Below are positions 27,799 through 61,079 of a stretch of 64,000 nt of DNA, piece after piece. Origin of the DNA: Bdellovibrionota bacterium (GTDB taxonomy: Bacteria > Bdellovibrionota_C > UBA2361 > OMIW01); contig JBIIHQ010000004.1 in the NCBI GenBank assembly GCA_044235645.1, positions 185,562 to 249,561 of the forward strand, in the 5' to 3' direction. Under the pieces are notes generated by a model. That model was not told the origin of the DNA. It saw only the letters and a list, made by a program, of their open reading frames with translations, and searched no databases. The position numbers and the translations under genes are program-made. The stretch's first letter is position 1. Each line of letters starts with the position of its first letter.

Positions 27799-28036
27799 AT
27801 ATTCCATGGTCAGCGAGCAGCAACGGTATTCCACCCCTCACGAGATATCCAACGGCTCCATCCTCCCGTACGAGGATATCTTCGAACTCTGACGGCGACC
27901 CTTTCCCAGTGACTGTTTGCAACAATCCATTCTCAGCCATATCCTTTAAGCGGGCTACCGTGCACACATCCGCTCGTTTCAGAGGCTGTCGGGATTCTGG
28001 GCACACAAGAAGGGTTAGAATTTCATTGGTGATCAT
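27758..28036 (-). CDS. Trm112-family small protein (UPF0434/YcaR-like zinc-ribbon-like)
   Basis: ILTLLVCPESRQPL...DGAVGYLVRGGIPLLL matches the Trm112 fold signature. It overlaps both neighbouring genes by a few codons. Confidence 0.55.
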   Translation of the reverse strand: MITNEILTLLVCPESRQPLKRADVCTVARLKDMAENGLLQTVTGKGSPSEFEDILVREDGAVGYLVRGGIPLLLADHGISISQSLQAGRHSS

Positions 28037-30113
28037 GGTTTTCAGTCTCCACGGGCTCCTCGTTGTCCGTAGTATAGGCATTAACGAGGGCAGAGTGGAA
28101 CCCTGGGAGCCGGGGGGATGGTTGTTCCCAGCTAATCACGCATAGCTCATCCTGTGCTCGAGTCGCTGCCACGTAGAGAAGATTAGCCGAAAGGGGTGAG
28201 TCGGGGAGCCTCTTTTTACTAGGATTCCAGAGGGCAACGGATGAGAACTCCAGCCCCTTCGCAAGTGATATGTCACTCACAAGGATTCCCTCGTCGAGGG
28301 TAAAGGCGCTTGGGTCGGCTAATTCGAGCAAATTACCGAAAGTAGGTTTCAGGAGAGATGCGGCTATTCTCGCCTCCTCCCGCGATGCACAGAGCACTGA
28401 ACAGAGTGTACCCGGATGTACCTGCAATGCGTGGGTGAGCCACTGAATCATCTGAGCGTGCCCAATTTCCTCCCGCTTGCATCGAACCCAGAGGGGACGA
28501 GGTCCAGTGCGACCTTCTGCGGGAAGCTCATCGCCACGGCATGCAGCCGCGAACTGCATGATGGGCAGGGTGCATCGGTATGGAACCGTCAGGTGTATCA
28601 GAGATACCTCAGGTTCGTTTGGTTTACGAAGGACCTCGCGAACAAATGACCAGCCGGGCAGGGAGTCCGGACGCTCGGTTTGTTGTGCTGAATCTCCTAC
28701 GAGGGTAAGCCCTCGGGAATTTTTTGCGGCGAGCGCGATGCATGACAGCTCAACCCCATTTAAATCCTGTACTTCATCAGCAATGATGGCATCATAACGA
28801 ATCGGCTCGAAGGGTAAATCTTTTCCGATGCGGAGTGCCTCAAGTTGAATCCAGAGGGCTAGCATGAGGTCGTGCCGATCGAAATCGTCGGCTTGAACGG
28901 AAGAGTAGTAATCGATTGATTCCCCGATACCGTCCATGTGCGGAGATGGCTTTCTTGAGCCTTTGTGGTGTGGATTCCAATCTGAGGAGAGGGCAGCTAT
29001 CAAGAGAGAACGAATACTTTCAAGGAAACCTTTGCTGAGGGAGCCGATTTTTTCTCCTGGATAATCATCTAAAAATTTATGATCGCGGATCAGAGGTTCC
29101 AATTGTCTGAGAAGGGTAACACTCGTTCTCACAGCTACGCTTGCAGCGGAGCCGTTCACGGCGGTCGTGGCACGAGATTCTCCGCCAACATTAAGAGTTT
29201 TAGAGGTCCATTCTGGTAGTGTGTAAACCGTCACGCCCGGTATAGATAGTTTTTCGAGAGAATTCCTGATGTAGCTTCTCAGTAGCGGATTGAGTACGAC
29301 GATCGCACTTCTGTCGGGAGAAATTTCTTCTCGACACTCGCTGAACAGCCAGGCTGCCCTATGGAGAGCTACGGTGGTCTTTCCAGACCCCGCCACCCCT
29401 TGAATGAGGACAGGAGATTGTGCATCTCGAGTTATTGCATCGAATTGGGCCGCTGAGATAAAAGACAGGACATCAGGGAGGCTCGAAGATGCAGAGAATG
29501 GTGCAGATGACCTGACAGCCGGATCGCCCGCCTTGCGCCAGCCGTCGTCTGTTAATACCAAAGCACCTTGTGAATGGGTTATTCTCCGCAGTATTCCGTG
29601 TTCAATTTCGACCTGACGTCTCAAGATCACGGTACCGTAGCGATCCGTGCCCTGAATTTCCTCTGCGAACTCATCCCCCTCTTTGTAATGGTAGTACAAC
29701 TTCGAAAGAGGAGCCTTTTTCCAATCGACGATACGACAGTCGCCGTTCGGGTGGTGCCCTACCTTGAATTCTCGCTCGACGGGTCCTGTATCGGATTCCT
29801 CTCGGATTACAAGCCGTGCAAAATAAGGCCTATTGAGAAGGGCATGGAGCCGCTCGACCTCTTCCTCGCTCCGTTCCTTCAGCGTGTGCGAAAGCCGTTC
29901 CTGATCCCCGAGTGAAGCCTTTTCCTCGAACCTTCGGGATGCGACTAGTTCATGAGTAAGCCTTCGAGCCCGATTCGTCTCCACAGTGAGTCGCCGCGTT
30001 TGATCGGCCTCTTGGAGTTGGAGACCGATGATTACCGTTCGGAGAACGGCCTCCTCTTCGGCAACAATCGCGAGTTCCTCGGGAGTTAAAAAGGATTTCA
30101 TACAGCCAGGCAA
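28023..30113 (-). CDS. UvrD-family helicase, HelD-like (helicase IV type)
   Basis: Walker A GVAGSGKTTVALHRAAWL, the HelD-like N-terminal region KVGHHPNGDCRIVDWKKAPLSKLYY, and a helicase C-terminal part (LYVAATRAQDEL). Confidence 0.78.
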   Translation of the reverse strand: MPGCMKSFLTPEELAIVAEEEAVLRTVIIGLQLQEADQTRRLTVETNRARRLTHELVASRRFEEKASLGDQERLSHTLKERSEEEVERLHALLNRPYFARLVIREESDTGPVEREFKVGHHPNGDCRIVDWKKAPLSKLYYHYKEGDEFAEEIQGTDRYGTVILRRQVEIEHGILRRITHSQGALVLTDDGWRKAGDPAVRSSAPFSASSSLPDVLSFISAAQFDAITRDAQSPVLIQGVAGSGKTTVALHRAAWLFSECREEISPDRSAIVVLNPLLRSYIRNSLEKLSIPGVTVYTLPEWTSKTLNVGGESRATTAVNGSAASVAVRTSVTLLRQLEPLIRDHKFLDDYPGEKIGSLSKGFLESIRSLLIAALSSDWNPHHKGSRKPSPHMDGIGESIDYYSSVQADDFDRHDLMLALWIQLEALRIGKDLPFEPIRYDAIIADEVQDLNGVELSCIALAAKNSRGLTLVGDSAQQTERPDSLPGWSFVREVLRKPNEPEVSLIHLTVPYRCTLPIMQFAAACRGDELPAEGRTGPRPLWVRCKREEIGHAQMIQWLTHALQVHPGTLCSVLCASREEARIAASLLKPTFGNLLELADPSAFTLDEGILVSDISLAKGLEFSSVALWNPSKKRLPDSPLSANLLYVAATRAQDELCVISWEQPSPRLPGFHSALVNAYTTDNEEPVETENHDHQ

Positions 30114-30462
30114 AAACTACACTGCAAAAAACTTCAAAAAAATAAACGCAGTTCTAAGATATGCAGGGGTTCGGCTAATCGAAGAGAAAACTTAAGGGTC
30201 GTGTGCGCAAAAGGGTATTTTTTGTTTTGACCGGTGCCGCTGGGTCGAGGCGAAATTTGGGTGTAGAGACATGGCCATATCTTGCTTCGGCGGAGCTGTT
30301 CATATAAAAGGGTAGTGTTTCAGGCCACTCAGTGCGGCGAGAGAGCCGTACCGAGGTGATGATGGCTCTGGGGGGGCGGATTTTCTGGGGCGTCCCCACT
30401 TGGGATGCAAGTTCTGGGATGCTCCTAGGGTGGACATCCGGCGGAGAAGGCAAAGGGGGGGA

Positions 30463-31080
30463 TACATGGGTTCTCAGTCGGGGTGGGCGAACAAAAATTC
30501 GCCGGAAGAGGTGCAGGTGGCGATGGTCGCCCTTAAGCACGATGGGGCCCCCTTGGTGAAAAGGTCGAGGGTTCGGCTCGGGGACCTCGAAGTGTGGTGT
30601 GAACGAGTTCACCAGCGTAGATTTTTGGAGGAGCTGAAATCACATCCGACTTATCGCTTCGATATGTTCGTCTCGGTAACGGTTGTTGATTGGATGGACC
30701 GTGCGGAAGAGCGTTTTGAGGTCGTTTATCACCTTTTGTCTCTCTCCACGAATGCTCGACTAAGATTGAGGGTTTGGGCACCAGAGGGCGATCCAGTTGT
30801 CGACTCGGTATCGGACCTGTGGCCAGGTGCTGACTTCATGGAAAGAGAGGCTTGGGATATGTACGGCGTAGTGTTCCGGGGACATCCTAACCTTCGTCGA
30901 ATCCTCATGTACGATGAGTTTAAGGGGTATCCCCTACGGAAAGATTATCCCGTCCAAGGCAAGCAACCGCGCATTCCCCTCCGGGCTCCGGAGGTTCGCA
31001 ATACGGCGGTCGATATGAAGCGACCCGAGCTGGTAGCAATTAATCCTCGCCGAAAGTGGACGGAATCGGCAAATCGATAG
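30463..31080 (+). CDS. nuoC: NADH-quinone oxidoreductase subunit C (30 kDa)
   Basis: DLWPGADFMEREAWDMYGVVFRGHPNLRRILMYDEFKGYPLRKDYP. The start is uncertain (30463 or 30523); the ORF is open from 30400. Confidence 0.85.
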   Translation, partial: YMGSQSGWANKNSPEEVQVAMVALKHDGAPLVKRSRVRLGDLEVWCERVHQRRFLEELKSHPTYRFDMFVSVTVVDWMDRAEERFEVVYHLLSLSTNARLRLRVWAPEGDPVVDSVSDLWPGADFMEREAWDMYGVVFRGHPNLRRILMYDEFKGYPLRKDYPVQGKQPRIPLRAPEVRNTAVDMKRPELVAINPRRKWTESANR

Positions 31081-31165
31081 ATTTACCATGGAGAGAAGGT
31101 TCTGGTCGCAGCCCTTCCCCAGGACTGAGATATTCCCCGCAGACGATTCCCCGAAAGAGATACCT

Positions 31166-32413
31166 ATGAGCGATCTTCTGAATGTTGATTACGGAGCAGG
31201 AGGGGTAACCACCCATATGCGACCCCGACCACTCGGGGATGACCTCCACTCCGAAACGATGATTCTCAACATGGGGCCGGCCCATCCGGCAACTCATGGC
31301 ACGGTTAGGTTGGTCGTCGAACTTGAGCATGAAAAGATTATCGATGCAGATGTTGAGGTCGGCTACCTGCACCGCGGTTTCGAAAAGATGTGTGAAACCG
31401 TCGATTATAACCAGGTAATGCCGTATGCCGATCGGCTCAATTACGTTTCGCCGATCATCAACAACGTAGGATGGTGTCTCACTATAGAAAAATTAATTGG
31501 TATCGAGGTGCCGAAGAGGTGTCAGTATGTCCGGGTGGTGATGTCCGAAATATCGCGGATCTCCGACCATTTGACTTGCCTTGGAGCATCGGCGATGGAG
31601 CTTGGTGCCTTTACCGTGATGCTGTACCTCATGCAGGCTCGTGAGGCTTTGTGGGAGCTTGTTGAAGAGGTTACCGGTGCTCGGTTGACGATTTCATATG
31701 GGCGAGTAGGAGGTCTTAAGTCTGATCTGCCGGATGGATTTGCAACTCGAATGGCAGCGGCGTTTAAGCAGGTCAGATTCCAGATGGAGCAAAGTGATAA
31801 GCTCTTGAGTCGAAATCGGATCTTCATTGACCGCATGTGCGACGTGGCGGTGCTCTCGGCTGATGAGGCGATAGCCTACTCGATTACAGGTCCTCTGCTT
31901 CGTGCCTCGGGAGTTTCGTATGATGTGAGAAAGGCATTTCCATACTCATCCTACGAGGATTTTGATTTTGAGGTCCCGGTGGGCACGAAGGGTGACAATT
32001 ACGATCGATTTCAGGTTCGGATGGCGGAGGTGGAGCAGTCGATGCGTATCTGTGAGCAAGCGATGGCTCGTTTGCCAGAGGGGCCGATATCAGTCGATAA
32101 TCCGAGAATCGTGCTTGCCCCGAAGGATGAAGTATATGGATCTATCGAGGGTATGATTAGCCATTTTGAGTTGGTCATCAAGGGTATTGAACCTCCAGAA
32201 GGTGACGTCTACCAGATGGTCGAAGGGGGGAATGGAGAGCTCGGATTCTTTGTGGTCTCTGACGGAACTGGAAGACCCTATCGAGTTCATGTGAGAGCGC
32301 CGAGTTTCATCCATATGGGTGCAATGAAGAAGATGCTCGTCGGCCAGTCGGTGGCGGATATTGTGCCCACTTTTGGCATGATAAATATGATTGGAGGGGA
32401 GTGCGATAGGTAG
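31166..32413 (+). CDS. nuoD: NADH-quinone oxidoreductase subunit D (49 kDa)
   Basis: ETMILNMGPAHPATHGTVRL...GYLHRGFEK and the C-terminal region VRAPSFIHMGAM. The start at MSDLL was chosen by alignment; the ORF is open from 31088. Confidence 0.9.
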   Translation: MSDLLNVDYGAGGVTTHMRPRPLGDDLHSETMILNMGPAHPATHGTVRLVVELEHEKIIDADVEVGYLHRGFEKMCETVDYNQVMPYADRLNYVSPIINNVGWCLTIEKLIGIEVPKRCQYVRVVMSEISRISDHLTCLGASAMELGAFTVMLYLMQAREALWELVEEVTGARLTISYGRVGGLKSDLPDGFATRMAAAFKQVRFQMEQSDKLLSRNRIFIDRMCDVAVLSADEAIAYSITGPLLRASGVSYDVRKAFPYSSYEDFDFEVPVGTKGDNYDRFQVRMAEVEQSMRICEQAMARLPEGPISVDNPRIVLAPKDEVYGSIEGMISHFELVIKGIEPPEGDVYQMVEGGNGELGFFVVSDGTGRPYRVHVRAPSFIHMGAMKKMLVGQSVADIVPTFGMINMIGGECDR

Positions 32414-32516
32414 AGGAAGCGGGATAGCGCTGAACTTTTTTCGTATAAGTGAGGTTTTTCCTGAGAAGCAAGGAAAGATGCCTCGAAGAGATTTTAAGCA
32501 TAGGTAATGGGACTGT

Positions 32517-33074
32517 ATGGATGTCGATTTGCCAGCCGATTTTGAGGCAAAATTAGTCGAGGTAAAGAAGCAGTACCCGCAATCCCGTTCGGCTATCATG
32601 CCAGCGCTGTACCTAGCTCAGCAGCATTTCGGCCACATATCGCAAGAGGCGGTGCGGTGGGTCTCCTCTCGGCTGGATATTCCTCCGGTTCATGTAATGG
32701 AGGTGGCATCGTTCTATACGATGTACTACAAAAAGCCGATCGGCCGGTACCATGTTCAGGTTTGTCGTACTCTTTCGTGCGCGGTCAGGGGAGCTCCCGA
32801 ATTGACGTCGTGTGTAAAGAGACGATTTGGCACCAAAGCTCACGAGCCGACCTCCGATGGGCAGTGGAGTTTCGAGGAGGTTGAGTGCCTCGGATCGTGT
32901 GGTACGGCTCCGATGGTCCAGATAAATGATTTTTATTTTGAAAATCTTGACCCTGAAAAGCTGGAAGCATTGCTTGATCGAATTGAGAAGGAACAGCCCG
33001 ATCTTCGTTTGTCTTCAGTAACCGATGCCATGTCAGGGGGACTGCCCGGTTGTCCAAAGTCGGAGGTAATATGA
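32517..33074 (+). CDS. nuoE: NADH-quinone oxidoreductase subunit E (24 kDa, 2Fe-2S)
   Basis: CRTLSCAVRG...ECLGSCGTAPMVQIND, the thioredoxin-like 2Fe-2S ligand pattern. Confidence 0.88.
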   Translation: MDVDLPADFEAKLVEVKKQYPQSRSAIMPALYLAQQHFGHISQEAVRWVSSRLDIPPVHVMEVASFYTMYYKKPIGRYHVQVCRTLSCAVRGAPELTSCVKRRFGTKAHEPTSDGQWSFEEVECLGSCGTAPMVQINDFYFENLDPEKLEALLDRIEKEQPDLRLSSVTDAMSGGLPGCPKSEVI

Positions 33075-34795
33075 CAGTGACTCCTTCCGATATCTCAGCG
33101 AATCCTACGTCTGGGCAAGGTGGACTCGCCTCGGAGGAATCGCCGGTTGTGACGCAATGTGGTGTGCCTGAAAGCGATTTGGTCACGGTCACGATCGATG
33201 GTTCTCAAGTCCGGGTTCGAAAAGGAACCAATATCATTGAGGCTGCCCGATTACTGGGCAAGGAAATTCCTCATTATTGCTATCATCCCGACCTCTCAAT
33301 AGCTGGCAACTGTCGGATGTGCCAGATTCAGGTGAAGGGGGTGCCTCGGCTGTCGATCGGGTGTAATACCAGTGCAACAGAAGGAATGGAGGTCACGACC
33401 CAGGCCACCGATTCGGGGGTCGTGGATGGCCAGGCCTCAGTCCTCGAGTTTATCTTGGCGAACCATCCCCTGGATTGTACTGTCTGCGATCAAGCAGGTC
33501 ATTGTAAGTTACAGGACTATCACTACGAATATAACGGTCGTCCCAGCCGATTTCTCGAAGATAAAGTCCACAAGGTTAAGGCGGAACCTCTCGGACCGAC
33601 GGTCATGCTGGATGGTGAGCGATGCATCATGTGCTCGCGATGTGTACGGTTCTGTGATGAGATAACGGGGACTTCAGAAATCGGGCTCCTCAATCGGGGA
33701 GATCGCACCGTTATTGCAGTTAGTCCTGACCGACCGCTTGACAATCCACTCTCGGGGACCGTGGTGGATCTTTGTCCGGTCGGTGCGCTGACTCATCGGG
33801 AGTGGCGTTTCAACTCTCGGATATGGTTTTCCAAGCAGACTGATGCAATTTGTCCCGGATGTTCAACGGGGTGCAATGTTCGGGTGGCCGTTCGGGACGC
33901 ACACGAGGTCGTTCAGGTCAAGGCTCGTTATAATCAGGCCGTGAATAAGGAATGGCTCTGTGATGAGGGCCGGTACGGGTTTGGGCGATTTCTCCCTCGA
34001 GATAGGCTTACATCACCATCAGTAGGGGGAAAGTCGGTAACGTTATCTGAGGCGCTCCGAGCTCTTCCCAAGTCTTCCGAAGATGAGGTAGCAATATTTG
34101 TTGCGCCCGACCTCATCCTTGAGGAGTACATTATCCTTCGTCGCTTTATCCAGGCGCGGATGCCTCGCGCTTTTGTCGCTCTGGCATTTCGAGAGCGGGA
34201 ACTAACTTCAGTTGAGAAGATTCTTATCAGCCCTGATTATGCGGCCAACTTCAGGGGAGTGCAAATTGGGCAGCTTTTTCGTCGTGAAGAGGGAGGCGAA
34301 GCGGCTGGAGATGGCTCGCTGGGAGAGAAGTTCTTGGGGGATCGATATGAGATGGCGCTTCGCAAACTTCGGGGCGGAGTGTTTTCCCGAGTGTTCTTCA
34401 TCGGAGAGCGCGCGATAGCAGGTAATGATCTTGATGCCGAGATATTATCTGCGGTACGGGCATGTCAAACATCGCTATTCATTGGCACGGATGAGACGAA
34501 TCCTTTGGTTTCAGCGGTCTCTGTGGTAATCCCGGGGCGCAGTATCCTCGAAAAAAGTGGCTTGGTCGTTAACCGCGCCTACCACCTCCAGTACACCGAG
34601 CGGGTGGTTGAGCTACCTGAGGGAACCATGCCTGAATGGAGAGTGCTCAATGAATGGGCTACGATCTCAGGGGGTGCATTGGTTGCTTCTCAAAACGATC
34701 GGGAGCTTACATTGGAGATTCTGTCCTCAGAGGAGCGGCTCAAGGGCTTGCGCCTAAAAGATATCAAGGCTGGTGGGGTTTCACTCGCGACTTAG
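33050..34795 (+). CDS. nuoG: NADH-quinone oxidoreductase subunit G (75 kDa), short form
   Basis: N-terminal 2Fe-2S ferredoxin-like region, the N5 cluster motif HPLDCTVCDQAGHC and the 4Fe-4S motif CIMCSRCVRFC. At 581 aa it lacks much of the long molybdopterin-like C-terminus. Confidence 0.85.
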   Translation: MSKVGGNMTVTPSDISANPTSGQGGLASEESPVVTQCGVPESDLVTVTIDGSQVRVRKGTNIIEAARLLGKEIPHYCYHPDLSIAGNCRMCQIQVKGVPRLSIGCNTSATEGMEVTTQATDSGVVDGQASVLEFILANHPLDCTVCDQAGHCKLQDYHYEYNGRPSRFLEDKVHKVKAEPLGPTVMLDGERCIMCSRCVRFCDEITGTSEIGLLNRGDRTVIAVSPDRPLDNPLSGTVVDLCPVGALTHREWRFNSRIWFSKQTDAICPGCSTGCNVRVAVRDAHEVVQVKARYNQAVNKEWLCDEGRYGFGRFLPRDRLTSPSVGGKSVTLSEALRALPKSSEDEVAIFVAPDLILEEYIILRRFIQARMPRAFVALAFRERELTSVEKILISPDYAANFRGVQIGQLFRREEGGEAAGDGSLGEKFLGDRYEMALRKLRGGVFSRVFFIGERAIAGNDLDAEILSAVRACQTSLFIGTDETNPLVSAVSVVIPGRSILEKSGLVVNRAYHLQYTERVVELPEGTMPEWRVLNEWATISGGALVASQNDRELTLEILSSEERLKGLRLKDIKAGGVSLAT

Positions 34796-34882
34796 GCTCT
34801 AGGTAAGCATTGAAACTGAGGGCATGAAAAGGGCGAATGTAACCAGTAACGAATTAGGCCGAGGGCGCAAAAAGAGGAATGT

Positions 34883-35974
34883 ATGGAATTGTTGATTCTT
34901 GGGGTCAAGGTTTTCGTCCTCTTTAACATAATCATGGGCCTTTCATCCTTTTGTACGTGGTTCGAGAGGAAGGGATCCGCTCTGATTCAGAATCGCATTG
35001 GTGCCAACCGGGCGGGAGCGTATTTCACAACCTCGGTTGCACCGCTTCGTCCAGCGTTCTTCGTCGTTCGCTGGCTTGGTATTCTGGGGGTTATTAACAC
35101 TCTTTTGTGTGACGCTGTGAAGGCTTTACTCAAAGAGGATTTCGTTCCCGAGGGGACCTCCACGGTCATGCATGCGCTGGGCCCTCTTCTCGCGGTTCTG
35201 CCGGTTTTCGTCGCGTTCGCGGCGATTCCAATGGCACCAGCCTTCGCCGTTGGCGGGATCACGATCCTTCCTCAGGTCGCACCTATTGATTCGGGACTCT
35301 TATTTATCCTTGCGATGGGTTCGCTTTCAGTTTACGGCGTAGCTATGGCAGGATGGACGGGGAACAATAAGTTTTCGCTCCTCGGTGGATTGCGAGCGGC
35401 GGCTCAAATGGTTTCCTATGAACTCGCAATGGGACTCTGCTTCGTTACCGCTGTTGTCATTTTTCAAACTCTCGACCCATATCAGATGGTTCGCCAGCAG
35501 GCGGGATCAATCACCAATTGGGGAATATTTTCGCAGCCGCTCGGATTTTTCATACTTTTTATAGTAGGGATGGCCGAGACTAAGCGAGGACCATTTGATC
35601 TGCCTGAGAGTGAATCAGAATTGGTTGCGGGGTATTTCACCGAATATTCAGGGATGAAGTTTCTGATCTTTTGGTTGGGGGAGTTTGCGGAAATTGGCCT
35701 TTTTTCCCTCCTTCTAGCTATCCTCTTCTTCGGTGGTTGGGAGATCCCGTTTATCACCCTTCCGGAGGGGCTTTGGTGGGCTGCCCTTGTGGGGCATGGA
35801 GTATTGATGGGTAAGGTAATCGTCCTTTCGATGCTCCAGATTATTATCAGGTGGACGCTTCCCCGCTTTCGGTTCGATCAGTTGATGTCGCTTGGTTGGA
35901 AGGTGTTGCTGCCGCTCTCCATGGTGAATTTGATGGTCACGGCGGCCGTTCGATTGGCAATCGCGCACCGATGA
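34883..35974 (+). CDS. nuoH: NADH-quinone oxidoreductase subunit H
   Basis: Polytopic membrane protein with NuoH/ND1 motifs (QNRIGANRAG...SLLGGLRAAAQMVSYE). Confidence 0.9.
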   Translation: MELLILGVKVFVLFNIIMGLSSFCTWFERKGSALIQNRIGANRAGAYFTTSVAPLRPAFFVVRWLGILGVINTLLCDAVKALLKEDFVPEGTSTVMHALGPLLAVLPVFVAFAAIPMAPAFAVGGITILPQVAPIDSGLLFILAMGSLSVYGVAMAGWTGNNKFSLLGGLRAAAQMVSYELAMGLCFVTAVVIFQTLDPYQMVRQQAGSITNWGIFSQPLGFFILFIVGMAETKRGPFDLPESESELVAGYFTEYSGMKFLIFWLGEFAEIGLFSLLLAILFFGGWEIPFITLPEGLWWAALVGHGVLMGKVIVLSMLQIIIRWTLPRFRFDQLMSLGWKVLLPLSMVNLMVTAAVRLAIAHR

Positions 35975-36046
35975 TTGAGGAGTTCTTCCCTTCAAAGGGC
36001 TCTTAAAGGCTCGGAAATTTCCATACAGGGTATCGGGAGATAGTAG

Positions 36047-36553
36047 ATGATGTCGGTAACGATAGCGATTTTATCCGTGTGTATGCTGACCACAGCGGTC
36101 TCCGTTGTTGCGGCGAAAAGCCCGATTGTGAGCGCACTCGCCCTTGTTGGTAATCTTATAACGGTAGCTGCATTGTATGCGGCGATGAATGCACATTTTC
36201 TTGCGGCTGTTCAGATACTCGTGTACGCCGGCGCAATAGTCGTTCTCGTTCTTTTTGTCCTGATGTTGCTGAATATAAAGGGCGAGGCGGGAAGAAGAAG
36301 TGATTTTATCCTGCGGGTGGCGGCTTCGATCATCGCGGGGTTTTTTCTGCTTACAGTGCTTCCTCTCTGGGATGAATGGCTTGGTTTAGACAACCTCTCA
36401 GCACCAGAGGGAACGGTACGAGCGATAGGAAAGCTCGTTTACACGGACTATGTATACTGTTTCGAGGTCGCCTCAATTCTAATTCTCATTGCAGTTGTCG
36501 GAGCGGTAACGCTAGGACGACGCGCTCGAATTCCGAATATCGCGAGCGAATAG
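36047..36553 (+). CDS. nuoJ: NADH-quinone oxidoreductase subunit J
   Basis: ND6-like N-terminal helices (AAVQILVYAGAIVVLVLFVLMLL). It comes immediately after nuoH, with no nuoI between them. Confidence 0.85.
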   Translation: MMSVTIAILSVCMLTTAVSVVAAKSPIVSALALVGNLITVAALYAAMNAHFLAAVQILVYAGAIVVLVLFVLMLLNIKGEAGRRSDFILRVAASIIAGFFLLTVLPLWDEWLGLDNLSAPEGTVRAIGKLVYTDYVYCFEVASILILIAVVGAVTLGRRARIPNIASE

Positions 36554-36599
36554 AGGGGATTAAAGAGAACTCGGGGGCCCTTAGATTAAAGGAATCGTC

Positions 36600-36902
36600 A
36601 TGGAGCCGATACATACCATACTGGCGATAGCCGCTATAACGTTTGCGATTGGAGCTGTTGGAGTTATTGTCCGTCGTAACGTAATCGTCGTGTTCATGTG
36701 CATTGAGCTCATGCTGAATGCGGTGAACCTCTCATTTGTGGCTTTTTCTCAGTCGGTGGGAAATCTTACCGGTCAAGTGGCGGTCTTTTTCGTAATGGTC
36801 GTCGCTGCAGCTGAGGCCGCGGTAGGGCTCGCCATCTTTATTGCGCTGTTCCGCACTGCTCGTTCAGTTGAATCCACCTCGGCTACCGAACTAAGGCTGT
36901 AA
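36600..36902 (+). CDS. nuoK: NADH-quinone oxidoreductase subunit K
   Basis: 100 aa, three transmembrane helices, with the ND4L signature [19 protein letters not shown]. Confidence 0.9.
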
Positions 36903-36905
36903 CGT

Positions 36906-38810
36906 ATGGACACTCGGCAGGTTATTACCTCCCTCGATCCCGCACTTATTCCATTAGCACCGCTCGTAGGGGCCGTTGCAGCGTATGGATTAGGTCGGAA
37001 AAACCGAGTTTTTTCGGGATTAATTGCTACCTTTGCGGCACTCGTTGCGTTTGCCTTGACCATAAAGGGGATTTTTGATCTTGCTCCTTCAGGAATCAAA
37101 GAGGCGCATCTGTGGCGATGGTTCGGGGTGGGGCAAGTTGCCTTCGATATGACGCTGCGTTTAGACCGACTTTCCGCGGTCATGTGTCTTGTCATCACTG
37201 GCATCGGCTCGCTCATCCACCTGTATTCAACCGCCTATATGGCCGATGATGACGGTATGCCCCGATTCTTCTCGTATCTTAATCTGTTCCTCTTCTCAAT
37301 GCTCGTTTTGGTCTTGGGAGGGAATCTATTGGTTCTTTTTATCGGATGGGAGGGGGTCGGGCTCTGTTCTTACCTCCTCATCGGTTTCTGGTTCCGCAAT
37401 TTAGATTATTGTGGAGCGGGTCGAAAAGCCTTCGTGGTAAATCGGATTGGAGACGCGGGAGTGCTCCTCGGCATATTTCTATTGCTCAAGCACTTTGGAA
37501 CGGTCGATTTTCTCGCTCTCAATGATCGTTTGGGTGAGGCAGCAGCCCTCTTTGACCCCTCACTTACGGCAGTCTGTACCCTAATCGGTTTCTGTCTATT
37601 CGTCGGCGCGACGGGAAAGTCTGCTCAACTCCCCCTCTTTGTGTGGTTACCCGATGCAATGGCAGGTCCCACTCCGGTGTCAGCACTTATCCATGCGGCC
37701 ACGATGGTTACCGCCGGTATTTATCTATTTGCTCGGGCGAACGTCGTTTTTGATGCGGCCGGTGCTGAGTTGGGTCTTATCGTCGTTGTCGTCGCCGCTT
37801 TGACAGCCTTTATCTCAGCGACAATCGCGGTCGCTCAGAATGACATAAAGAAAGTTCTCGCCTACTCGACCGTAAGTCAGCTTGGGTTCATGTTTCTTGC
37901 GGCTGGAGCGGGAGCCTATTGGGTCGCGCTCTTCCATGTCATAACCCACGCATTCTTTAAAGCGTGCCTCTTTCTCGGAGCTGGCTCGGTCATTCATGGT
38001 TGTCATCATGAGCAAGACATGCGGCAAATGGGTGGTTTGCGACGTTTGATGCCGGTGACCTTTATCACCTATTTTATCAGTACTTTGGCAATAGCTGGGA
38101 TATATCCGTTTGCCGGCTTTCACTCAAAACACGCTATTTTGGCATCGATAAGTGAAAGTCCAAATAACCTCATCGTGGCATCCGCTCCGATAATTGTCCT
38201 CATTTCGAGTGTGACTGCGGGCTTAACAGCTTTTTACATGACTCGATCACTTGTATTGACGTTTTTCGGTGCTTATCGAGGCCATGCTCACCCGCATGAA
38301 TCACCTTGGAGGATGACGGTTCCTCTTGTTGTCTTGGCGGTGTTAGCGGTGATTGGTGGTATTGGGCTTGAGCATTCACTTCCACATTATCTGGAGGCGG
38401 TCCTTCCCCGGGCTCATGCCCACGACTCCCTCAGTCCAATTGATTCGTTGGGGGCCTCCTGGATTGGAGTTCTCGGTGTGCTCATTGGAGTAATTCTTTA
38501 TGGTCCGTTGGCCAGCCTTCCTCCAGCCATTGCGAAGGCAATCCCCCATCTTTTGAAGCTTTTGCAGGGTAAGTACTTCATCGATGAGGTGTATCAGATT
38601 TTCATCGTTCGGCCCTTAGAGGGACTATCGAGAGTCTTATGGCGAGGCGTCGATCAAGGGGTTATTGATGGTACAGTAAATGGGACCGCTGAAGTCGTAG
38701 AGGTTTCAGGGGAGCTCGTGCGCTCGATGCAAACGGGAGACGTCAGGCACTATGCTCTCTATCTTTTTGGGGCGATCGCGACGATGGTAGCGGTCTATCT
38801 CGTCTGGTAA
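36906..38810 (+). CDS. nuoL: NADH-quinone oxidoreductase subunit L
   Basis: 634 aa antiporter-like subunit with motifs such as GWEGVGLCSYLLIGFW and the long C-terminal lateral helix region. Confidence 0.92.
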   Translation: MDTRQVITSLDPALIPLAPLVGAVAAYGLGRKNRVFSGLIATFAALVAFALTIKGIFDLAPSGIKEAHLWRWFGVGQVAFDMTLRLDRLSAVMCLVITGIGSLIHLYSTAYMADDDGMPRFFSYLNLFLFSMLVLVLGGNLLVLFIGWEGVGLCSYLLIGFWFRNLDYCGAGRKAFVVNRIGDAGVLLGIFLLLKHFGTVDFLALNDRLGEAAALFDPSLTAVCTLIGFCLFVGATGKSAQLPLFVWLPDAMAGPTPVSALIHAATMVTAGIYLFARANVVFDAAGAELGLIVVVVAALTAFISATIAVAQNDIKKVLAYSTVSQLGFMFLAAGAGAYWVALFHVITHAFFKACLFLGAGSVIHGCHHEQDMRQMGGLRRLMPVTFITYFISTLAIAGIYPFAGFHSKHAILASISESPNNLIVASAPIIVLISSVTAGLTAFYMTRSLVLTFFGAYRGHAHPHESPWRMTVPLVVLAVLAVIGGIGLEHSLPHYLEAVLPRAHAHDSLSPIDSLGASWIGVLGVLIGVILYGPLASLPPAIAKAIPHLLKLLQGKYFIDEVYQIFIVRPLEGLSRVLWRGVDQGVIDGTVNGTAEVVEVSGELVRSMQTGDVRHYALYLFGAIATMVAVYLVW

Positions 38811-38862
38811 GTTCTCTCTTTTTTACAGAATCGCAACACAAGAACGGCGGAAAGGCGGAGAG

Positions 38863-40506
38863 GTGGAGGAGAAAATGAGCATGGCGTTACTAGACGGATT
38901 TCCGCTGTTGAGTGCACTCGTATGGCTACCTTTGCTGGGAGCCGTTCTTCTCTACGCAATCCCCGGGGGGAACTCTGCAGAGGGGCGGTTGCGATCAAGG
39001 GGATTGGCTCTCGGATTCACCGTGGTGACTCTGATTTTGTCATTGCTCGCTCTGAGTCGATTCTCGCCGAATCAGCCCGGTTATCAGCTGGTGGAGTCGT
39101 TTCGTTGGATTGAGTCTCTCGGTGTCCGATACGAGTTGGGCATCGATGGGGTAAGTCTAGCACTGATTCTGCTCACGACGATTCTCATGCCCTTGATAGT
39201 CCTTTCTTCCCACTCAATTCATGAGTCACTGCGTGGGTATCTTTCCTGTATGCTCGTTCTCGAAACTGCGATGCTGGGCACACTAGTTGCTCTAGACCTT
39301 TTTCTTTTTTATCTTTTCTGGGAGTTCATGCTTGCTCCGATGTATCTCATCATTGGGATATGGGGAGGGAAGCGCCGAGTTTACGCGAGTATGAAGTTCG
39401 TCCTTTATACCGCAGTCGGAAGTGTTCTCATGTTCGTAGCGATACTTTATACGTCTTGGATGGCGTATGATCAGGCGGGTGTTCAGCTTCCCTCGTTTCT
39501 TCTTGGCGATCTCTTGCAGGCTCGATTCACTCTTCAGGAGCAGATGTGGCTCTTTGCAGCATTTGCGCTTGCGATGTGCATAAAGATACCTCTTTTCCCG
39601 CTCCATACATGGTTGCCAGATGCGCATGTCGAGGCTCCGACTGGAGGGTCTGTTGTATTGGCAGGTGTTCTTCTGAAGATGGGCCTTTATGGACTTTTTC
39701 GATTTGGATACCCGCTGTTCCCTGATGGGGCGGCCGTTTTTGCGCCGTATCTGGCAGCGCTTGCGGTTGTCGGAATAATTTATGGCGCTTGCATTGCGTG
39801 GGTTCAGATTGATATCAAAAAGCTGGTCGCGTACTCCTCAGTATCTCATCTGGGATACTGCGTACTGGGAATGGTCGCCGGTACTAGTCTCTCGGTGACA
39901 GGGTCGACAGTTCAGATGATTAATCATGGAATCTCGACCGGAGCTCTCTTCCTTCTTGTCGGTGTGCTTTATGATCGGACTCACACGAGGCTAATAGCCG
40001 ATTATGGGGGCATTGCAGCGAAAGTACCGGTCTTTGCAACGCTATTTTTACTATTCACGCTGAGCTCGATAGCCCTTCCTTTAACCAACGGGTTTGTCGG
40101 AGAATTTATGATCTTGGCGGGTAGCTTTGAGACCTATCCCATGCTCACCCTTTTTGCTTTGGCCGGTGTTGTACTCGGAGCCGTATACATGCTCACGCTG
40201 TACATGAAAACCATGTACGGAGAGGTTAATCCGGCGAGGGAAGGATTGACGGATATTCGCCTCATCGAAGCGGTTACCCTGACCCCGTTGCTAATCCTGG
40301 TATTTTGGCTCGGGTTGTTTCCTCAGCCTCTGGTTGATCTAATCGAGCCCTCCGTGGTGCGTTCGCTCCAAATAACGAGAGAGCGAGCGCATGTGCTTCG
40401 GGAGGCTGAGGTGATCCGAGAGGCTCTCATCCCTGAGGATATGACGCCTCGGGGTGTTTCTATGAACAAGCAAAGTGAACAACATTCCCACCGAATGTCG
40501 CTCTAG
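38863..40506 (+). CDS. nuoM: NADH-quinone oxidoreductase subunit M
   Basis: 547 aa antiporter-like subunit (WLPDAHVEAPTGGSVVLAGVLLKMG). Confidence 0.92.
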   Translation: MEEKMSMALLDGFPLLSALVWLPLLGAVLLYAIPGGNSAEGRLRSRGLALGFTVVTLILSLLALSRFSPNQPGYQLVESFRWIESLGVRYELGIDGVSLALILLTTILMPLIVLSSHSIHESLRGYLSCMLVLETAMLGTLVALDLFLFYLFWEFMLAPMYLIIGIWGGKRRVYASMKFVLYTAVGSVLMFVAILYTSWMAYDQAGVQLPSFLLGDLLQARFTLQEQMWLFAAFALAMCIKIPLFPLHTWLPDAHVEAPTGGSVVLAGVLLKMGLYGLFRFGYPLFPDGAAVFAPYLAALAVVGIIYGACIAWVQIDIKKLVAYSSVSHLGYCVLGMVAGTSLSVTGSTVQMINHGISTGALFLLVGVLYDRTHTRLIADYGGIAAKVPVFATLFLLFTLSSIALPLTNGFVGEFMILAGSFETYPMLTLFALAGVVLGAVYMLTLYMKTMYGEVNPAREGLTDIRLIEAVTLTPLLILVFWLGLFPQPLVDLIEPSVVRSLQITRERAHVLREAEVIREALIPEDMTPRGVSMNKQSEQHSHRMSL

Positions 40507-40568
40507 AGAACTGAGCGGCGAGCAAGGGTGAGGGAAGAATAAATAATACACCACAAAAAAGGGGTGTC

Positions 40569-42062
40569 ATGACAAATGTCACGGAATGGGTCCCGGTGAT
40601 ACCGACAGCGGTGCTCGGATTGGGTGGAATGGTGCTAGCTTTAGCGCCTCGAGGAGGAGAGCGTATTCCAGCGTTTGGGGCTCTCGCTCTCGTGGTGATC
40701 GCCCTCAGCGTGGCATTACTATTTGATGGTGGATACACCGTCAGTGTCGGAGCTTCTCGCATCCCAGATGCAGGGTTGTTTGGAGCGGGGTTTCTTTCTG
40801 ACCCCTTTACGTGGTTCTTCACTGTTCTTGTTCTGGTGGGAACCCTCGTCGTTGTGGCAATGTCGTTCGGTCGGCTCGCATCGCTCGGGATATCGTCGAG
40901 TCCAGAATATTACGGTCTCTTGTTGATGACTTCGGCCAGTGCGATCGTGTTGGTTGGGGCGGGTGAGCTAATAACCCTCTTTGTCGGCCTTGAAGCGTTA
41001 TCGTTAGGTCTTTACTGTCTCTGTGGGTCTGCGGTTAGTTCTCGAAGGAGCGTCGAGGGGGCTCTCAAATATTTTATTCTTGGGTCCTTTAGTTCTGCAT
41101 TTCTGCTTTACGGGATGTCGGTTTTATATGGGGTCACCGGAAGCACTGAACTTGCGGTGATTGCCCGAGCGTTGGTCTCGGTAAGACAAATTCCGGCTAT
41201 TTTTGGAGTGGGACTGATTCTTGTAGGAGTCTTCTTCAAGCTTGGGGCGGTTCCGTTCCATTTCTGGGCGCCTGATGTGTACCAAGGAGCACCTACTCCG
41301 GTCACAGCCTACATGGCAAGTGTGGTCAAGGCTGCAGCGTTGGCGATGGCAATGAGGCTCCTTTGGGTTGGCTTTGGTCATATGGAGGTTGCGGGTTGGT
41401 GGCTTGGTAGTGCGTGGACCGTCGCGCTCTTGACCATGATAGTCGGTAACATAGTTGCCGTTCGGCAGCGTAATGTGAAAAGGCTGCTCGCGTATTCAAG
41501 TATCGCTCATGTGGGATACATGATGGCAGCGCTTCTGACTCCAGGGGCGCGAGCAGCCGGGGGGGGAGCTCTTCTCTTCTATATCGTTGCGTACTCCGTG
41601 GTTACCTTCGGTGCATTTGCGGTTACAATGGCTGTAACTGGCGACCGTGTTGAACATCCATCTGCCGACGATATAAGTTCTTTTGCTGGGCTCTCACAAA
41701 CTAATCCACGAATTGCTGCTGCGATGACCCTTTTTCTGCTCACCCTGGCGGGGCTTCCTCCGGGGATTGTCGGTCTTGTTGGAAAGTTCTATCTCTTGAG
41801 CGTAGTTGTTCAATCTCATTTTGTGGGGCTTGCAGTGGTGGCCGCGCTATGTTCGGCCATTTCATGTTACTTCTATCTGAGGGTCATAACTGCCATGTAT
41901 GTGCACCAAGTAACGGATGTAACGCCTGCCCACTTTGTCTCTCCCTTGGGTACCCGGATTGTGATCGGGTCGATGGTCGCAGCATCAATTATCCTTGGGG
42001 TATTGCCCTCATTTCTTTACAACAGGGCCCAAGCGGTTGCTCACGGAGTTTTTGTCAGATAG
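40569..42062 (+). CDS. nuoN: NADH-quinone oxidoreductase subunit N
   Basis: 497 aa antiporter-like subunit (FHFWAPDVYQGAPTPVTAYMASVVKAAAL). It is the last gene of the nuo cluster. Confidence 0.9.
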   Translation: MTNVTEWVPVIPTAVLGLGGMVLALAPRGGERIPAFGALALVVIALSVALLFDGGYTVSVGASRIPDAGLFGAGFLSDPFTWFFTVLVLVGTLVVVAMSFGRLASLGISSSPEYYGLLLMTSASAIVLVGAGELITLFVGLEALSLGLYCLCGSAVSSRRSVEGALKYFILGSFSSAFLLYGMSVLYGVTGSTELAVIARALVSVRQIPAIFGVGLILVGVFFKLGAVPFHFWAPDVYQGAPTPVTAYMASVVKAAALAMAMRLLWVGFGHMEVAGWWLGSAWTVALLTMIVGNIVAVRQRNVKRLLAYSSIAHVGYMMAALLTPGARAAGGGALLFYIVAYSVVTFGAFAVTMAVTGDRVEHPSADDISSFAGLSQTNPRIAAAMTLFLLTLAGLPPGIVGLVGKFYLLSVVVQSHFVGLAVVAALCSAISCYFYLRVITAMYVHQVTDVTPAHFVSPLGTRIVIGSMVAASIILGVLPSFLYNRAQAVAHGVFVR

Positions 42063-42528
42063 CCATAAGAAATCGTGGGACGGCCGCAAAAAAAGTAATT
42101 TCTGCGGAGAATCCGGGGGTTTTCGTTTTTTTTTCCGTTGATTGTTCTGAGCTGTATTCTTATAGTTATCGAGTGCAAGCCGAGAAGGGCATGCAACAGG
42201 TATCGAGTCGATCAGAGAAGGGGTGTATTTCCTGAAATCTCGCCGGAAATTTCGGGATTACTCTGGTCGGCAAGGGGAGAGCTGTCTTGTCGTTATGATC
42301 GGAAAGCAGAGAACTGTAGGGTTCCTGTTCAGGTCCTCAGTGGCATCACTTGTGATGTTCCGCTGGTCGACGAGTTTAACCATGTCATCTGAATTCACGT
42401 GACCATACCGTCGCAAAGTGCGCGCAGCTTTTGTCATTTTGCCGCCCATTTCCCGGTCGGTAAGGTGGGATCCGGTGCGAGAATCCGGGGGGCAAGTGAT
42501 GAAGGATTTTTTTATGAGGGATAGTACC

Positions 42529-43035
42529 ATGGCCGCAAAGCCCGCAAAGAAAGGCAAAGTAGAAAAGAAAGTTGCAACTAAGAAAGCGCCCGTTGCTAAG
42601 AAAGCTGCAGCAAAACCCGCGAAGATAAAGACAGTAAAGAAAGTTGCAGCTCCCAAGGCTGTGAAGAAGGTTGCAGCTCCTAAGGCTAAGAAGGCCGTTG
42701 AAGGAGGTTCGAAGGTTCAGCAGATCGTAAAGCCCAAAAATACAAATGGTAGCTTCACTCAGTCTGAGTTCCTCGAAAATCTCCGTTCCTACTGTGGCTT
42801 GCAGAAGCGTTCACAGGCAAAGGAGCTCGTGGGCGATGTTCAAAAGCTCATCCAGGATTCTCTCATGAAGGGCTACAAGATACCCTTCTTTGGTCTTGGT
42901 AAGCTCTATGTGCGAGCCACAAAAGAGCGCATGGGCCGAAATCCGCAGACGGGCGCGCCGACCAAGATTCCCGCGCGTAAGCGAGTGCGGTTCACCCCTG
43001 CGAAGGCTCTCAAGGAGGCTATCCTTAAGAAGTAA
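42529..43035 (+). CDS. HU/IHF-family DNA-binding protein with a lysine/alanine/proline-rich histone-H1-like N-terminal extension
   Basis: The C-terminal ~90 aa form an HU fold with the DNA-binding arm GLGKLYVRATKERMGRNPQTGAPTKIPARKRVRF. The N-terminal ~70 aa consist of AKPAKK/KKVAAPKA repeats. The start at MAAKPAKK has a GAGGG RBS; the ORF is open from 42418 (GTG). Confidence 0.8.
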   Translation: MAAKPAKKGKVEKKVATKKAPVAKKAAAKPAKIKTVKKVAAPKAVKKVAAPKAKKAVEGGSKVQQIVKPKNTNGSFTQSEFLENLRSYCGLQKRSQAKELVGDVQKLIQDSLMKGYKIPFFGLGKLYVRATKERMGRNPQTGAPTKIPARKRVRFTPAKALKEAILKK

Positions 43036-46040: not shown

Positions 46041-46275
46041 CTGAAGTGCCAGGGGTCGAAGGGTGCGGATTGATGCCGGAAATCGTGATGAGTTGGACGA
46101 GTCACCCAGATTGGGGGAATAAGCCCGCAATCTCTCGCGGTGTGTCTTTCGATACCATACCTCAAGCTGGCTGAATAATAATCCCCTTATCGTCAACCAA
46201 ATCCTCTTTTTTCGCACCAGGAGTGAAATTCATCGCATCGTATCGTGGAATGTCGTCAACACTTCGGGAGAAAGC

Positions 46276-56071: not shown

Positions 56072-56873
56072 CGAGAGGTTGTAACCAAGCTGCCTCGTCG
56101 CGGCATATCGCATTCCATCCAGAGCGAGTCGCCTGTGCTACTTCATCCGGAAGTGATGAGAAAGAGCACCAACTTCGTTGTACGCCGTCAATCCCAGTGA
56201 ACGATACCCCGAGAGAGTGCAGGAGAAAGGCTCTATTTTGTATGAGCGGGGTACGGTGTGTGCCACCGTAGAGGGTGTCCCCTGCAAGCGGGTGACCGAG
56301 AGACGCTGCGTGAGCCCGAATCTGATGGCGCCTCCCCGTTTTTATCATAACTGCAACAAGAGAAGATTCCGAATCCTCGAAGGTGACGAGAGGGTAAAAG
56401 TGGGAGAGAGCATCCTGAACCGAGTGAAAGAGATGGGCGGAGGAGGTGCTTCTCGCAGGAGAGTCAGGAAGTGCGACGACCTTCGCAGAGTGTCGATATC
56501 GAGAGGCAATAGGCGCGGAACAGGTCATCGGGACGGATAATCGTCCCTCAACGAGAGCAACATACCACTTGAGAACGCGGTCGGTCGAGAAGAGCGATCG
56601 TAAATGCACCCAGCTCTCCCTCGAGCGAGCTGAGACGAGCACCCCACTCGTTTCCTCATCAAGTCGATGAGCCAGCCCACAATCACCATCATTTCCGATG
56701 GATGTCTGATCGGGGAAATTGCGCTCGATCCAGGTCGCGATAGAACGATCCTCAGCAATTTTGGAAGAGGAAAAGACACCTGAAGGCTTAAGGAAAACCC
56801 GATAGAAACCATCTTCCGCGATGAGGCGCACCGACGAGAAGATATGATGGTCAAGGGGGATGTTTTCTTTCAC
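56034..56873 (-). CDS. RluA-family pseudouridine synthase (no S4 domain)
   Basis: Motif II HRLDEETSGVLVSARS including the catalytic Asp, and motif III TGRRHQIRAHAASLGHPLAGDTLYG. Confidence 0.82.
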   Translation of the reverse strand: MKENIPLDHHIFSSVRLIAEDGFYRVFLKPSGVFSSSKIAEDRSIATWIERNFPDQTSIGNDGDCGLAHRLDEETSGVLVSARSRESWVHLRSLFSTDRVLKWYVALVEGRLSVPMTCSAPIASRYRHSAKVVALPDSPARSTSSAHLFHSVQDALSHFYPLVTFEDSESSLVAVMIKTGRRHQIRAHAASLGHPLAGDTLYGGTHRTPLIQNRAFLLHSLGVSFTGIDGVQRSWCSFSSLPDEVAQATRSGWNAICRDEAAWLQPLVNASAEFRTDES

Positions 56874-57862: not shown

Positions 57863-58058
57863 ACTGTTCCTGCTGAATTTAACACAGTCCCCCGGGCTGA
57901 ACTGATCGCACGTGATGCGCGTCCCAGCTCAAAGATGGACAGGTGCCATCTTTTCTTTCGTATACAACAAGTTCGATCTTTCGTCGAACGGTGTATTTAC
58001 AGAAAGGTAAATTTTTTTGACTGTGAGCGACCTTTTGTTCGGCGTTGCATCTATCAAG

Positions 58059-58081
58059 GATTCGAAGGTGAAATTCGAATC
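58059..58081. promoter_or_regulatory. perfect 8-bp inverted repeat GATTCGAA-N7-TTCGAATC in the glk/GT4 divergent promoter region
   Basis: A palindrome seen directly in the sequence. A second 6-bp inverted repeat, GTTCGA-N7-TCGAAC, lies at about 57971-57989. Candidate operator sites for a sugar-responsive regulator. Confidence 0.3.
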
Positions 58082-58311
58082 GGTGAAGAACCTCAAGTGA
58101 TCTCCCGAGTTTGCCTTGTTTGGACAATTTGTTCTGATTAAAGAGGAGTTTTTTGCTGCTGTTGGCATTGAAAATAACGGCTGGCTGTGCTTGACTGCTA
58201 GTATCGGTGGTGAGTCAAGGCGGTTAGGGGGTGGTTGATTTTCCTTAATGGTATTCGGCGGTAAAGGGAGGGTCGGAGTCGTACTATCTTAACTATCTTA
58301 CGTGCGGTGCG

Positions 58312-59646: not shown

Positions 59647-59807
59647 GAGGTATTGGCCTTTCGTGGGTATAGATAAGGGGGGATGTGAAGGCGCTTGTAT
59701 GGCTTCTGGGGTGAGTGATTGCTCTCACAAGGTGCGTTCCCCGAGAGGGAGAAAGATAGATTTTATCGGTGTAGGGGTTTCGGCAGCTAACTTCGGAGGA
59801 CTACGGT

Positions 59808-61025: not shown

Positions 61026-61079
61026 GATGATAATCATGGGTAGATAGCGAAGAGCTACCAGATGTAAAGGGGGCTAACG

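Follow-up and report, generated by a model that had tools for sequence, protein, structure and literature searches.

What becomes of complex I when four of its fourteen core genes are missing from the operon? This question is raised by a cluster of nuo genes in a 64,000-nucleotide stretch of DNA (contig JBIIHQ010000004.1, hereafter the window) from an uncultured freshwater Bdellovibrionota bacterium. The cluster probably encodes, as judged from its sequence, 10 of the 14 core subunits of a canonical complex I, the proton-pumping NADH:quinone oxidoreductase, whilst nuoA, nuoB, nuoF and nuoI are absent from the locus. Comparison with related clusters separated these absences into two layers, an old dispersal of nuoA, nuoB and nuoI and a recent, clean deletion of nuoF that is specific to one subclade. 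We consider it likely that the enzyme is a canonical complex I with dispersed genes, nuoA, nuoB, nuoI and a NuoF-type partner being encoded elsewhere in the same genome.

Gene content of the cluster

Genes of the window were identified with Pfam and NCBIfam profiles, and relatives were compared under labels of the form L015, L016 and L017. Ten nuo open reading frames (ORFs) lie on one strand (+) between positions 30400 and 42062.

30400-31080, + strand: nuoC, 30-kDa subunit (PF00329, 1.5e-44; TIGR01961 above cutoff)
31088-32413, + strand: nuoD, 49-kDa subunit (TIGR01962, 499.7 bits against a cutoff of 459)
32517-33074, + strand: nuoE, 24-kDa subunit carrying the N1a [2Fe-2S] cluster (PF01257, 5.4e-50)
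33071-34795 from ATG, or 33050-34795 from TTG, + strand: nuoG, short form (Fer2_4, NADH-G_4Fe-4S_3, Fer4_Nqo3, Molybdop_Fe4S4)
34883-35974, + strand: nuoH (PF00146, 4.2e-96)
36047-36553, + strand: nuoJ (PF00499, 3.5e-34)
36600-36902, + strand: nuoK (PF00420; NF004320 above cutoff)
36906-38810, + strand: nuoL, full length (NF005141, 708.6 bits against a cutoff of 556; model positions 7-610 of 615)
38863-40506, + strand: nuoM (TIGR01972, 583.8 bits, above the curated cutoff)
40569-42062, + strand: nuoN, final gene of the cluster (TIGR01770, 371.3 bits against a cutoff of 332.6)
28023-30101 or 28023-30113 depending on the start codon, - strand: UvrD-like helicase, divergent from nuoC (Pfam UvrD-helicase and UvrD_C_2)
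30114-30465, no strand: divergent intergenic region of ~350 nt, with no coding capacity for nuoA or nuoB

Three of the starts admit more than one choice. The longest nuoC ORF has 226 codons from a TTG, and the probable start at 30466, as in the JGI gene calls, gives 204 aa; nuoD encodes 441 aa, or 415 aa from a start at 31166 as in its relatives; and nuoG encodes 574 aa from the ATG at 33071 or 581 aa from the upstream TTG at 33050. The nuoE-nuoG pair is separated by 103 nt from nuoD and by 87 nt from nuoH. Between nuoH and nuoJ, the usual place of nuoI, the gap is 72 nt.

The helicase gene marks the boundary of the cluster and is not part of the enzyme. Depending on the start codons chosen, it is ~290-365 nt away from nuoC. 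No + strand ORF of at least 80 aa was found in 30114-30465, and several NuoA baits gave no tblastn match to this region; a scan with the sigma-70 consensus detected no site in it, and scans for promoters and terminators did not rise above shuffled controls. The arrangement described in an earlier note on this DNA, which was made by reading the sequence only, was thus reproduced by the profiles and by direct reading: the order nuoCDEGHJKLMN with tight spacing, the overlap of nuoE and nuoG (4 nt, ATGA), a spacing of about 70 nt between nuoH and nuoJ that leaves out nuoI, and a divergent region of ~350 bp shared with a helicase gene and free of nuoA and nuoB.

Absence of nuoA, nuoB, nuoF and nuoI from the locus and its surroundings

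The four missing genes were sought among all ORFs of at least 100 aa in the 64-kb window, where no match to NuoA, NuoB, NuoF or NuoI was found. The window was also searched by tblastn at E<=0.01 with the NuoA, NuoB, NuoI and NuoF proteins of E. coli, four NuoF proteins of the lineage, NuoA, NuoB and NuoI from other phyla and one Bdellovibrionota NuoI. None of the four genes was recovered, the sole matches being to the NuoC and NuoD parts of two fused baits. The absence of all four from the locus, as the earlier note had claimed, was therefore confirmed by ORF profiles and tblastn over the window, and it extends to 10 kb on each side, the flanks being read from other assemblies and the whole amounting to ~84 kb. 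No remnant of nuoF was detected by tblastn at the nuoE-nuoG junction; as synonymous divergence (dS) is saturated, traces at the DNA level are not expected.

Module by module, the membrane arm has NuoH, J, K, L, M and N, all present and canonical, and nuoA is absent across the ~84 kb. Of the Q-module, NuoC and NuoD are present and nuoB and nuoI are absent over the same distance. The N-module retains NuoE and NuoG with all of their Fe-S ligands, and nuoF is absent from the locus without a remnant.

Candidates from outside the window were assessed as well. Two NuoF proteins, P0137 and P0184, were rejected, as both are encoded inside CDEFGHJKLMN clusters of other organisms. A Bdellovibrionota metagenome-assembled genome (MAG) from Lake Mendota, L028, carries nuoD-E-F-G-I and was considered as a second locus of the window genome; it was rejected as a different organism, its xseA fragment showing no similarity to the xseA of the window and its Nuo proteins being only 36-47% identical to those of the window. 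A NuoA bait taken from L029, the nearest cluster containing nuoA, yielded among its listed matches only close relatives of the bait (at least 75% identity), several of them labelled Candidatus Binatia.

Two layers of gene absence from the locus among relatives

The order nuoC-D-E-F-G-H-J-K-L-M-N was found in six independent relatives, namely L015 (on a 1.16-Mb ENA contig), L016 ('Oligoflexia bacterium' GCA_019694515.1), L019, L021, L026 ('uncultured Bdellovibrionales') and L106. In these clusters nuoF lies between nuoE and nuoG and encodes 427-439 aa, and no nuoA, nuoB or nuoI was found within 10 kb of any of the six. The order is shared by L107-L109; NuoG is 57-64% identical to that of the window in L015, L016, L019, L106-L109 and L021, and 47% identical in L026. 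A divergent UvrD-like helicase gene adjoins nuoC in most relatives examined (L015, L016, L017, L019 and L106), whereas L021 keeps the order of the nuo genes but has no helicase. The norm of the lineage is a helicase gene divergent from nuoCDEFGHJKLMN, with nuoA, nuoB and nuoI missing from the locus. As these three genes are absent from the locus in every relative examined, their dispersal is old and lineage-wide. Bdellovibrio is itself a named example of a 'split' nuo operon (Degli Esposti 2015, PMC4758237).

The absence of nuoF from the locus is confined to a narrower group. Besides the window organism, the nuoF-less subclade comprises L017/L018 (NuoG 72-75% identical to that of the window), L125 (71%), L121 (85%) and L114 (67-70%). 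L125 has C-D-E-G-H-J-K-L on a 66.6-kb JGI contig; it and L121 were the two real cases among the 11 matches obtained when JGI metagenomes were scanned with the junction pattern, and no nuoF was seen near the junction in either of them. The four absences, which the earlier note had taken together, are all present in the window, but they did not arise as a single event: those of nuoA, nuoB and nuoI are lineage-wide and that of nuoF belongs to the subclade.

The most divergent nuoF-less relative, L114, is known from a contig of only 2.7 kb. At least 247 nt before its nuoE-nuoG pair (positions 1-247) and at least 189 nt after it (2503-2691) do not code for NuoD or NuoH, and the L114 cluster may be further fragmented.

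The junction between nuoE and nuoG

The place that nuoF occupies in the relatives is reduced, in the window, to the following element.

33061-33074, + strand: nuoE/nuoG junction GGAGGTAATATGA, read directly from the sequence, with a Shine-Dalgarno-like GGAGG within nuoE

Six bases past the GGAGG, the TGA of nuoE overlaps the ATG of nuoG by 4 nt (ATGA). The junction CCNAARTCNGARGTNATATGAC, which encodes GCPKSEVI followed by the stop codon and the overlapping ATGAC, is common to the window, L017, L114, L121 and L125. Sharing of one junction by clusters whose NuoG proteins are 67-85% identical points to a single ancestral deletion, which would have been kept over considerable divergence. The first codons of nuoG in nuoF-less clusters (ATG ACN) resemble the start of nuoF in L016 and L106, which hints that the deletion may have fused the initiation region of nuoF to nuoG and so lengthened NuoG by ~20 residues. 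No new gene is inserted at or beside the junction.

Intactness and constraint of the encoded subunits

The four Cys ligands of N1a are intact in NuoE, and the ligand motifs of N1b, N4, N5 (His-Cys3) and N7 are present in NuoG. NuoD keeps the quinone-site His and Tyr (H224 and Y273 of E. coli NuoCD), which are residues 70 and 119 in its 441-aa ORF, in line with a complex I subunit that has no NiFe-binding site; its best PDB matches are the 49-kDa subunits of canonical complex I, far ahead of Mbh. In the membrane arm, the residues conserved include the equivalents of E. coli E157, D213, E216 and E218 in NuoH, of Y59 in NuoJ, of E36 and E72 in NuoK, of E144, K229 and K399 in NuoL, of E144, K234, K265 and E407 in NuoM, and of E133, K217, K247 and K395 in NuoN. 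Altogether, the window, L017, L019 and L016 have the E. coli residue at 20 of the 21 reference positions checked; the exception is D400 of NuoL, which is a His in all four. On these features each of the ten genes appears to be functional. In complex I, an intact quinone site and an intact pumping arm depend on the N2 and N6a/b carriers, NuoB and NuoI, and nuoB and nuoI are therefore presumed to be elsewhere.

Constraint was assessed by comparison with L017, the identities between the two nuoF-less clusters being 93% for NuoD, 91% for NuoH, 84% for NuoE, 75% for each of NuoG, NuoL and NuoM, 74% for NuoC, 71% for NuoJ and 69% for NuoN. For nuoE the nonsynonymous divergence (dN) is 0.098, dS is saturated and their ratio omega is very low. 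The quotient dN(E)/dN(G) is 0.5 in this nuoF-less pair, compared with 0.9-1.0 in three nuoF-containing pairs. Furthermore, of the sites that do not vary among six nuoF-containing relatives, both nuoF-less genomes retain 55 of 60 in NuoE and 168 of 182 in NuoG, which falls within the 85-98% of the other subunits. Gene nuoE is under strong purifying selection in spite of having no adjacent nuoF, with no relaxation or remodelling.

NuoE-type subunits are not known in any role other than that of partner to a NuoF-type flavoprotein. In keeping with this, the solved structures matched by the window NuoE all belong to multisubunit enzymes of this type (complex I, Hox/Hyd hydrogenases, NAD-dependent formate dehydrogenase and Nfn), the best matches being canonical complex I subunits. 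The strong constraint on nuoE argues that such a partner still exists.

The NuoG protein falls below the cutoff of TIGR01973, its match to this model being limited to the N-terminal ~350 residues. It has a full set of N-terminal Fe-S domains and a reduced C-terminal domain. Most of the matching NuoG-type chains of solved structure have 630-910 aa and align only to the N-terminal ~320-360 residues (~18-340). The earlier note had pointed to the shortness of NuoG at 581 aa, a length that holds for the TTG-initiated ORF; it is no peculiarity of the locus, since the best 120 NuoG homologues have 523-596 aa, and a short NuoG (~550 aa) is a trait of the whole family. Within the C-terminal domain, at residues ~405-420, the window NuoG carries a 15-residue Gly/Glu-rich insertion, EEGGEAAGDGSLGEK, which is absent from the other five aligned NuoG proteins, including that of the nuoF-less L017.

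Independent assemblies

The identical layout has been assembled independently in more than 15 samples and with different assemblers. Exact copies of NuoD and NuoG with the same neighbours occur in JGI 3300059688, 3300059473, 3300044628, 3300044631, 3300033996, 3300042906 and 3300044971, in Logan SRR36526143, SRR19514063, SRR27430719, SRR3184730, SRR27420232, SRR19514065 and SRR13425444, and in ENA assemblies and the NCBI assembly GCA_041443045.1 (a contig of 181,588 bp). Other proteins of the window were also found on a contig of 305,443 bp. Such recurrence in independent samples means that the layout is not an artefact. The earlier note had named an assembly artefact or a recent partial duplication as what would overturn its proposal; these are ruled out by the independent assemblies, the low dN and the intact residues. 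Against decay stand the intact state of all ORFs, the conservation of catalytic residues and the low dN. Nothing beyond the odd gene content itself speaks for an artefact, a duplication or a decaying remnant, and we regard all of these as extremely improbable.

Fragmentation of nuo clusters in other phyla

Gene order was surveyed at 80 loci, drawn from a NuoF-alignment scan of species-representative genomes that gave at least 600 matches, mostly from Acidobacteriota and Bacteroidota. Clusters ABCDEFGHJKLMN, without nuoI, were seen in Blastocatellia and Pyrinomonadaceae. The order A-CDEFGHJKLMN, without nuoB and nuoI, was found in the Binatia-like loci L029, L041, L083 and L084, and A-EFGHJKLMN, without nuoB, C, D and I, in L052, L056, L068, L078, L093 and L100, several of which are Acidobacteriota. 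The nearest relative of the window outside the Oligoflexia-type clusters is L029 (NuoD 64% identical), several of whose NuoA relatives are labelled Candidatus Binatia, as noted above. The window layout is the far end of this series of eroded clusters.

Several observations were made on the surveyed loci themselves. Clusters that lack nuoI, nuoB and nuoI, or nuoB, C, D and I and yet keep E-F-G are frequent in Acidobacteriota, Binatia-like genomes, Calditrichaceae and other MAGs, and across L027-L105 the Fe-S subunits of the Q-module are the genes most often encoded apart from the cluster. Peripheral-arm-only clusters, with the membrane subunits not adjacent, were seen in L028 (42-4928; D-E-F-G-I, in which nuoG encodes 509 aa and is immediately followed by nuoI) and in the Blastocatellia MAG L027 (B-CD-E-F-G-I). 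Two loci carry apparent fusions: a 286-aa NuoA-NuoC protein in the Calditrichaceae MAG L041 (7235-8095), and a 632-aa ORF in L027 (7630-9528) that covers NuoC and NuoD and has a NuoB-like start.

Explanations for the missing genes

Ordinary operon fragmentation, and not a new enzyme, is the most likely explanation of the locus. The earlier note had offered a split nuo system as one of its two readings, and this reading is now favoured by the lineage-wide layout, by the published case of Bdellovibrio (PMC4758237) and by the constraint on nuoE. Stand-alone nuoF genes do occur: a closed Thermodesulfobacteriota chromosome, L051, carries a canonical nuoF at 9995-11251 (418 aa; Complex1_51K, SLBB and NADH_4Fe-4S domains). 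Its neighbours are unrelated genes (for a DAO oxidoreductase and a SulP transporter, and gatB), and neither nuoE nor nuoG lies within 10 kb of it, which provides a precedent for dispersal. The clusters of other phyla that lack nuoI, nuoB and nuoI, or nuoB, C, D and I are further precedents. Three observations weigh on the other side. None of the four missing genes was located in the ~84 kb covered, and the 10-kb flanks contain no nuo gene at all; the deletion of nuoF is clean, and nothing indicates that a rearrangement carried the gene to a nearby site; and among the best 120 homologues of the NuoF of L019, the nearest nuoF-containing relative, which served as query, none could be assigned to the window organism. 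The last of these is a weak negative, since the list reaches down to ~67% identity, close to the level at which vertical inheritance would be expected to place a copy.

In this history, nuoA, nuoB and nuoI left the main cluster long ago, and nuoF was then removed by a clean deletion in the subclade of the window organism. This deletion put the start of nuoG on the stop codon of nuoE (ATGA) behind the GGAGG, so that nuoG may now be translationally coupled to nuoE. The enzyme would still be built from all fourteen subunits, with NuoA, NuoB, NuoI and a NuoF-type flavoprotein supplied from elsewhere on the chromosome.

It is also conceivable, although we think it unlikely, that the window cluster specifies an additional isozyme of complex I which shares NuoA, NuoB and NuoI, and in the subclade NuoF, with a complete or Nuo11-type operon elsewhere in the same genome; this corresponds to the borrowing of input parts in the other reading of the earlier note. 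Clusters that lack exactly nuoB and nuoI, or the Q-module genes nuoB, C, D and I, do recur in many phyla, and the peripheral-arm cluster of L028 indicates that other nuo layouts exist in Bdellovibrionota; yet L028 is a different organism with an unrelated xseA, and no second nuo cluster was seen in the retrieved DNA of the window organism or its close relatives. The window subunits, moreover, show the degree of conservation of a housekeeping enzyme, as the values for NuoD and NuoH against L017 illustrate (93% and 91%), and complex I clades are reported to exchange subunits by recombination only rarely (Spero 2015, PMC4453560). Still less probable, in our estimation, is a true loss of NuoF in the subclade, NuoE and NuoG being kept as a scaffold and Fe-S wire at which another donor docks in NuoF's place. 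Flavodoxin, ferredoxin or a non-homologous flavoprotein might fill this role, and the situation would be analogous to that of Campylobacter complex I. The absence of nuoF from the ~84 kb and the missing NuoF among the 120 homologues fit such a loss, as does the retention of the clean deletion in at least four diverged lineages, and modified forms of complex I with other donors are documented (Spero 2015, PMC4453560). However, the junction has received no gene, either at it or beside it, and the homologue search counts for little given the identity at which its list ends. Campylobacter, for its part, replaces both nuoE and nuoF and not nuoF alone, and NuoE, for which no role apart from a NuoF-type partner is known, ranks with the better conserved subunits of the nuoF-less clade.

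The consequences differ with the explanation. Should nuoF simply be elsewhere, the locus takes the known fragmentation of nuo operons in Bdellovibrionota one step further and matters mainly for annotation, as pipelines that score complex I by operon completeness would wrongly call such organisms 'partial' or 'lacking complex I'. The common clusters without nuoI or nuoB also raise the question of how the amounts of the Q-module Fe-S subunits are matched to the rest when their genes lie in trans. The interest of the locus is modest unless nuoF is truly absent; it would then be a natural experiment on whether NuoE and NuoG can serve a different electron-input protein, and the N-module, with a non-NuoF input protein on NuoE/NuoG, would be of a kind not described so far.

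Neighbouring genes

Downstream of nuoN, at 43821-46217 (- strand), lies a gene for a large fused membrane redox protein, DsrMK/HdrD-like, with a NarI-like heme-b domain, a 4Fe-4S ferredoxin domain and two CCG domains; it is accompanied by an HU-like gene at 42418-43035 (+ strand). The redox gene follows nuoN also in the contigs of the window organism (L007) and in the nuoF-less L017, and a peptidase M3 gene or a flagellar gene stands in its place in nuoF-containing relatives. The segment 18225-24851 (- strand) is a cluster of genes for a MoxR-type AAA ATPase, a TPR protein, a transglutaminase-like protein and a product of 454 aa that matches no Pfam family. In E. coli, an interaction of MoxR ATPases with Nuo has been reported (PMC3893208). 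Positions 56870-63964 and the DNA beyond (L112) form a glycogen/glucan neighbourhood with glucokinase, a GT4/GT5 glycogen synthase-like protein, GH57, an MGH1/GH63-like protein and a debranching enzyme, in which a BolA-glutaredoxin pair is embedded.

Comparison with known systems

Relative to the canonical 14-gene complex I (nuoA-N of E. coli, nqo1-14 of Thermus thermophilus), the ten subunits of the window are canonical and keep their ligands and channel residues, whereas four core genes are missing from the operon and NuoG has ~550-575 aa instead of 783 (Thermus) or 908 (E. coli). The complex I of Campylobacter and Helicobacter likewise has no gene for the NADH-oxidising flavoprotein in its operon. 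There, two unrelated genes stand in the place of both nuoE and nuoF, whereas the window keeps a canonical, conserved nuoE that overlaps nuoG, with no replacement gene. Flavodoxin is the electron donor in the Campylobacter-type complex I (PMC4453560). The Nuo11, NDH-1 and Fpo complexes share with the window an electron-input module that is incomplete at the operon level, but they are devoid of the whole N-module (E, F and G), whereas the window keeps a constrained nuoE and nuoG and is short of nuoF only; Nuo11 operons, on the other hand, retain the nuoB and nuoI that the window operon lacks. The eroded clusters of other phyla are also without nuoI and often without nuoB, but unlike the window they keep nuoA and nuoF.

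The closest correspondence is with the split nuo clusters of the Bdellovibrio/Oligoflexia type, with which the window shares the gene order, the short NuoG, the absence of nuoA, nuoB and nuoI and, in most relatives, the helicase neighbour. From the nuoCDEFGHJKLMN layout of Bdellovibrionota it differs in the loss of nuoF from between nuoE and nuoG and in the apparent translational coupling of nuoG to nuoE. The window layout is a derived variant of the split nuo cluster already noted for Bdellovibrio.

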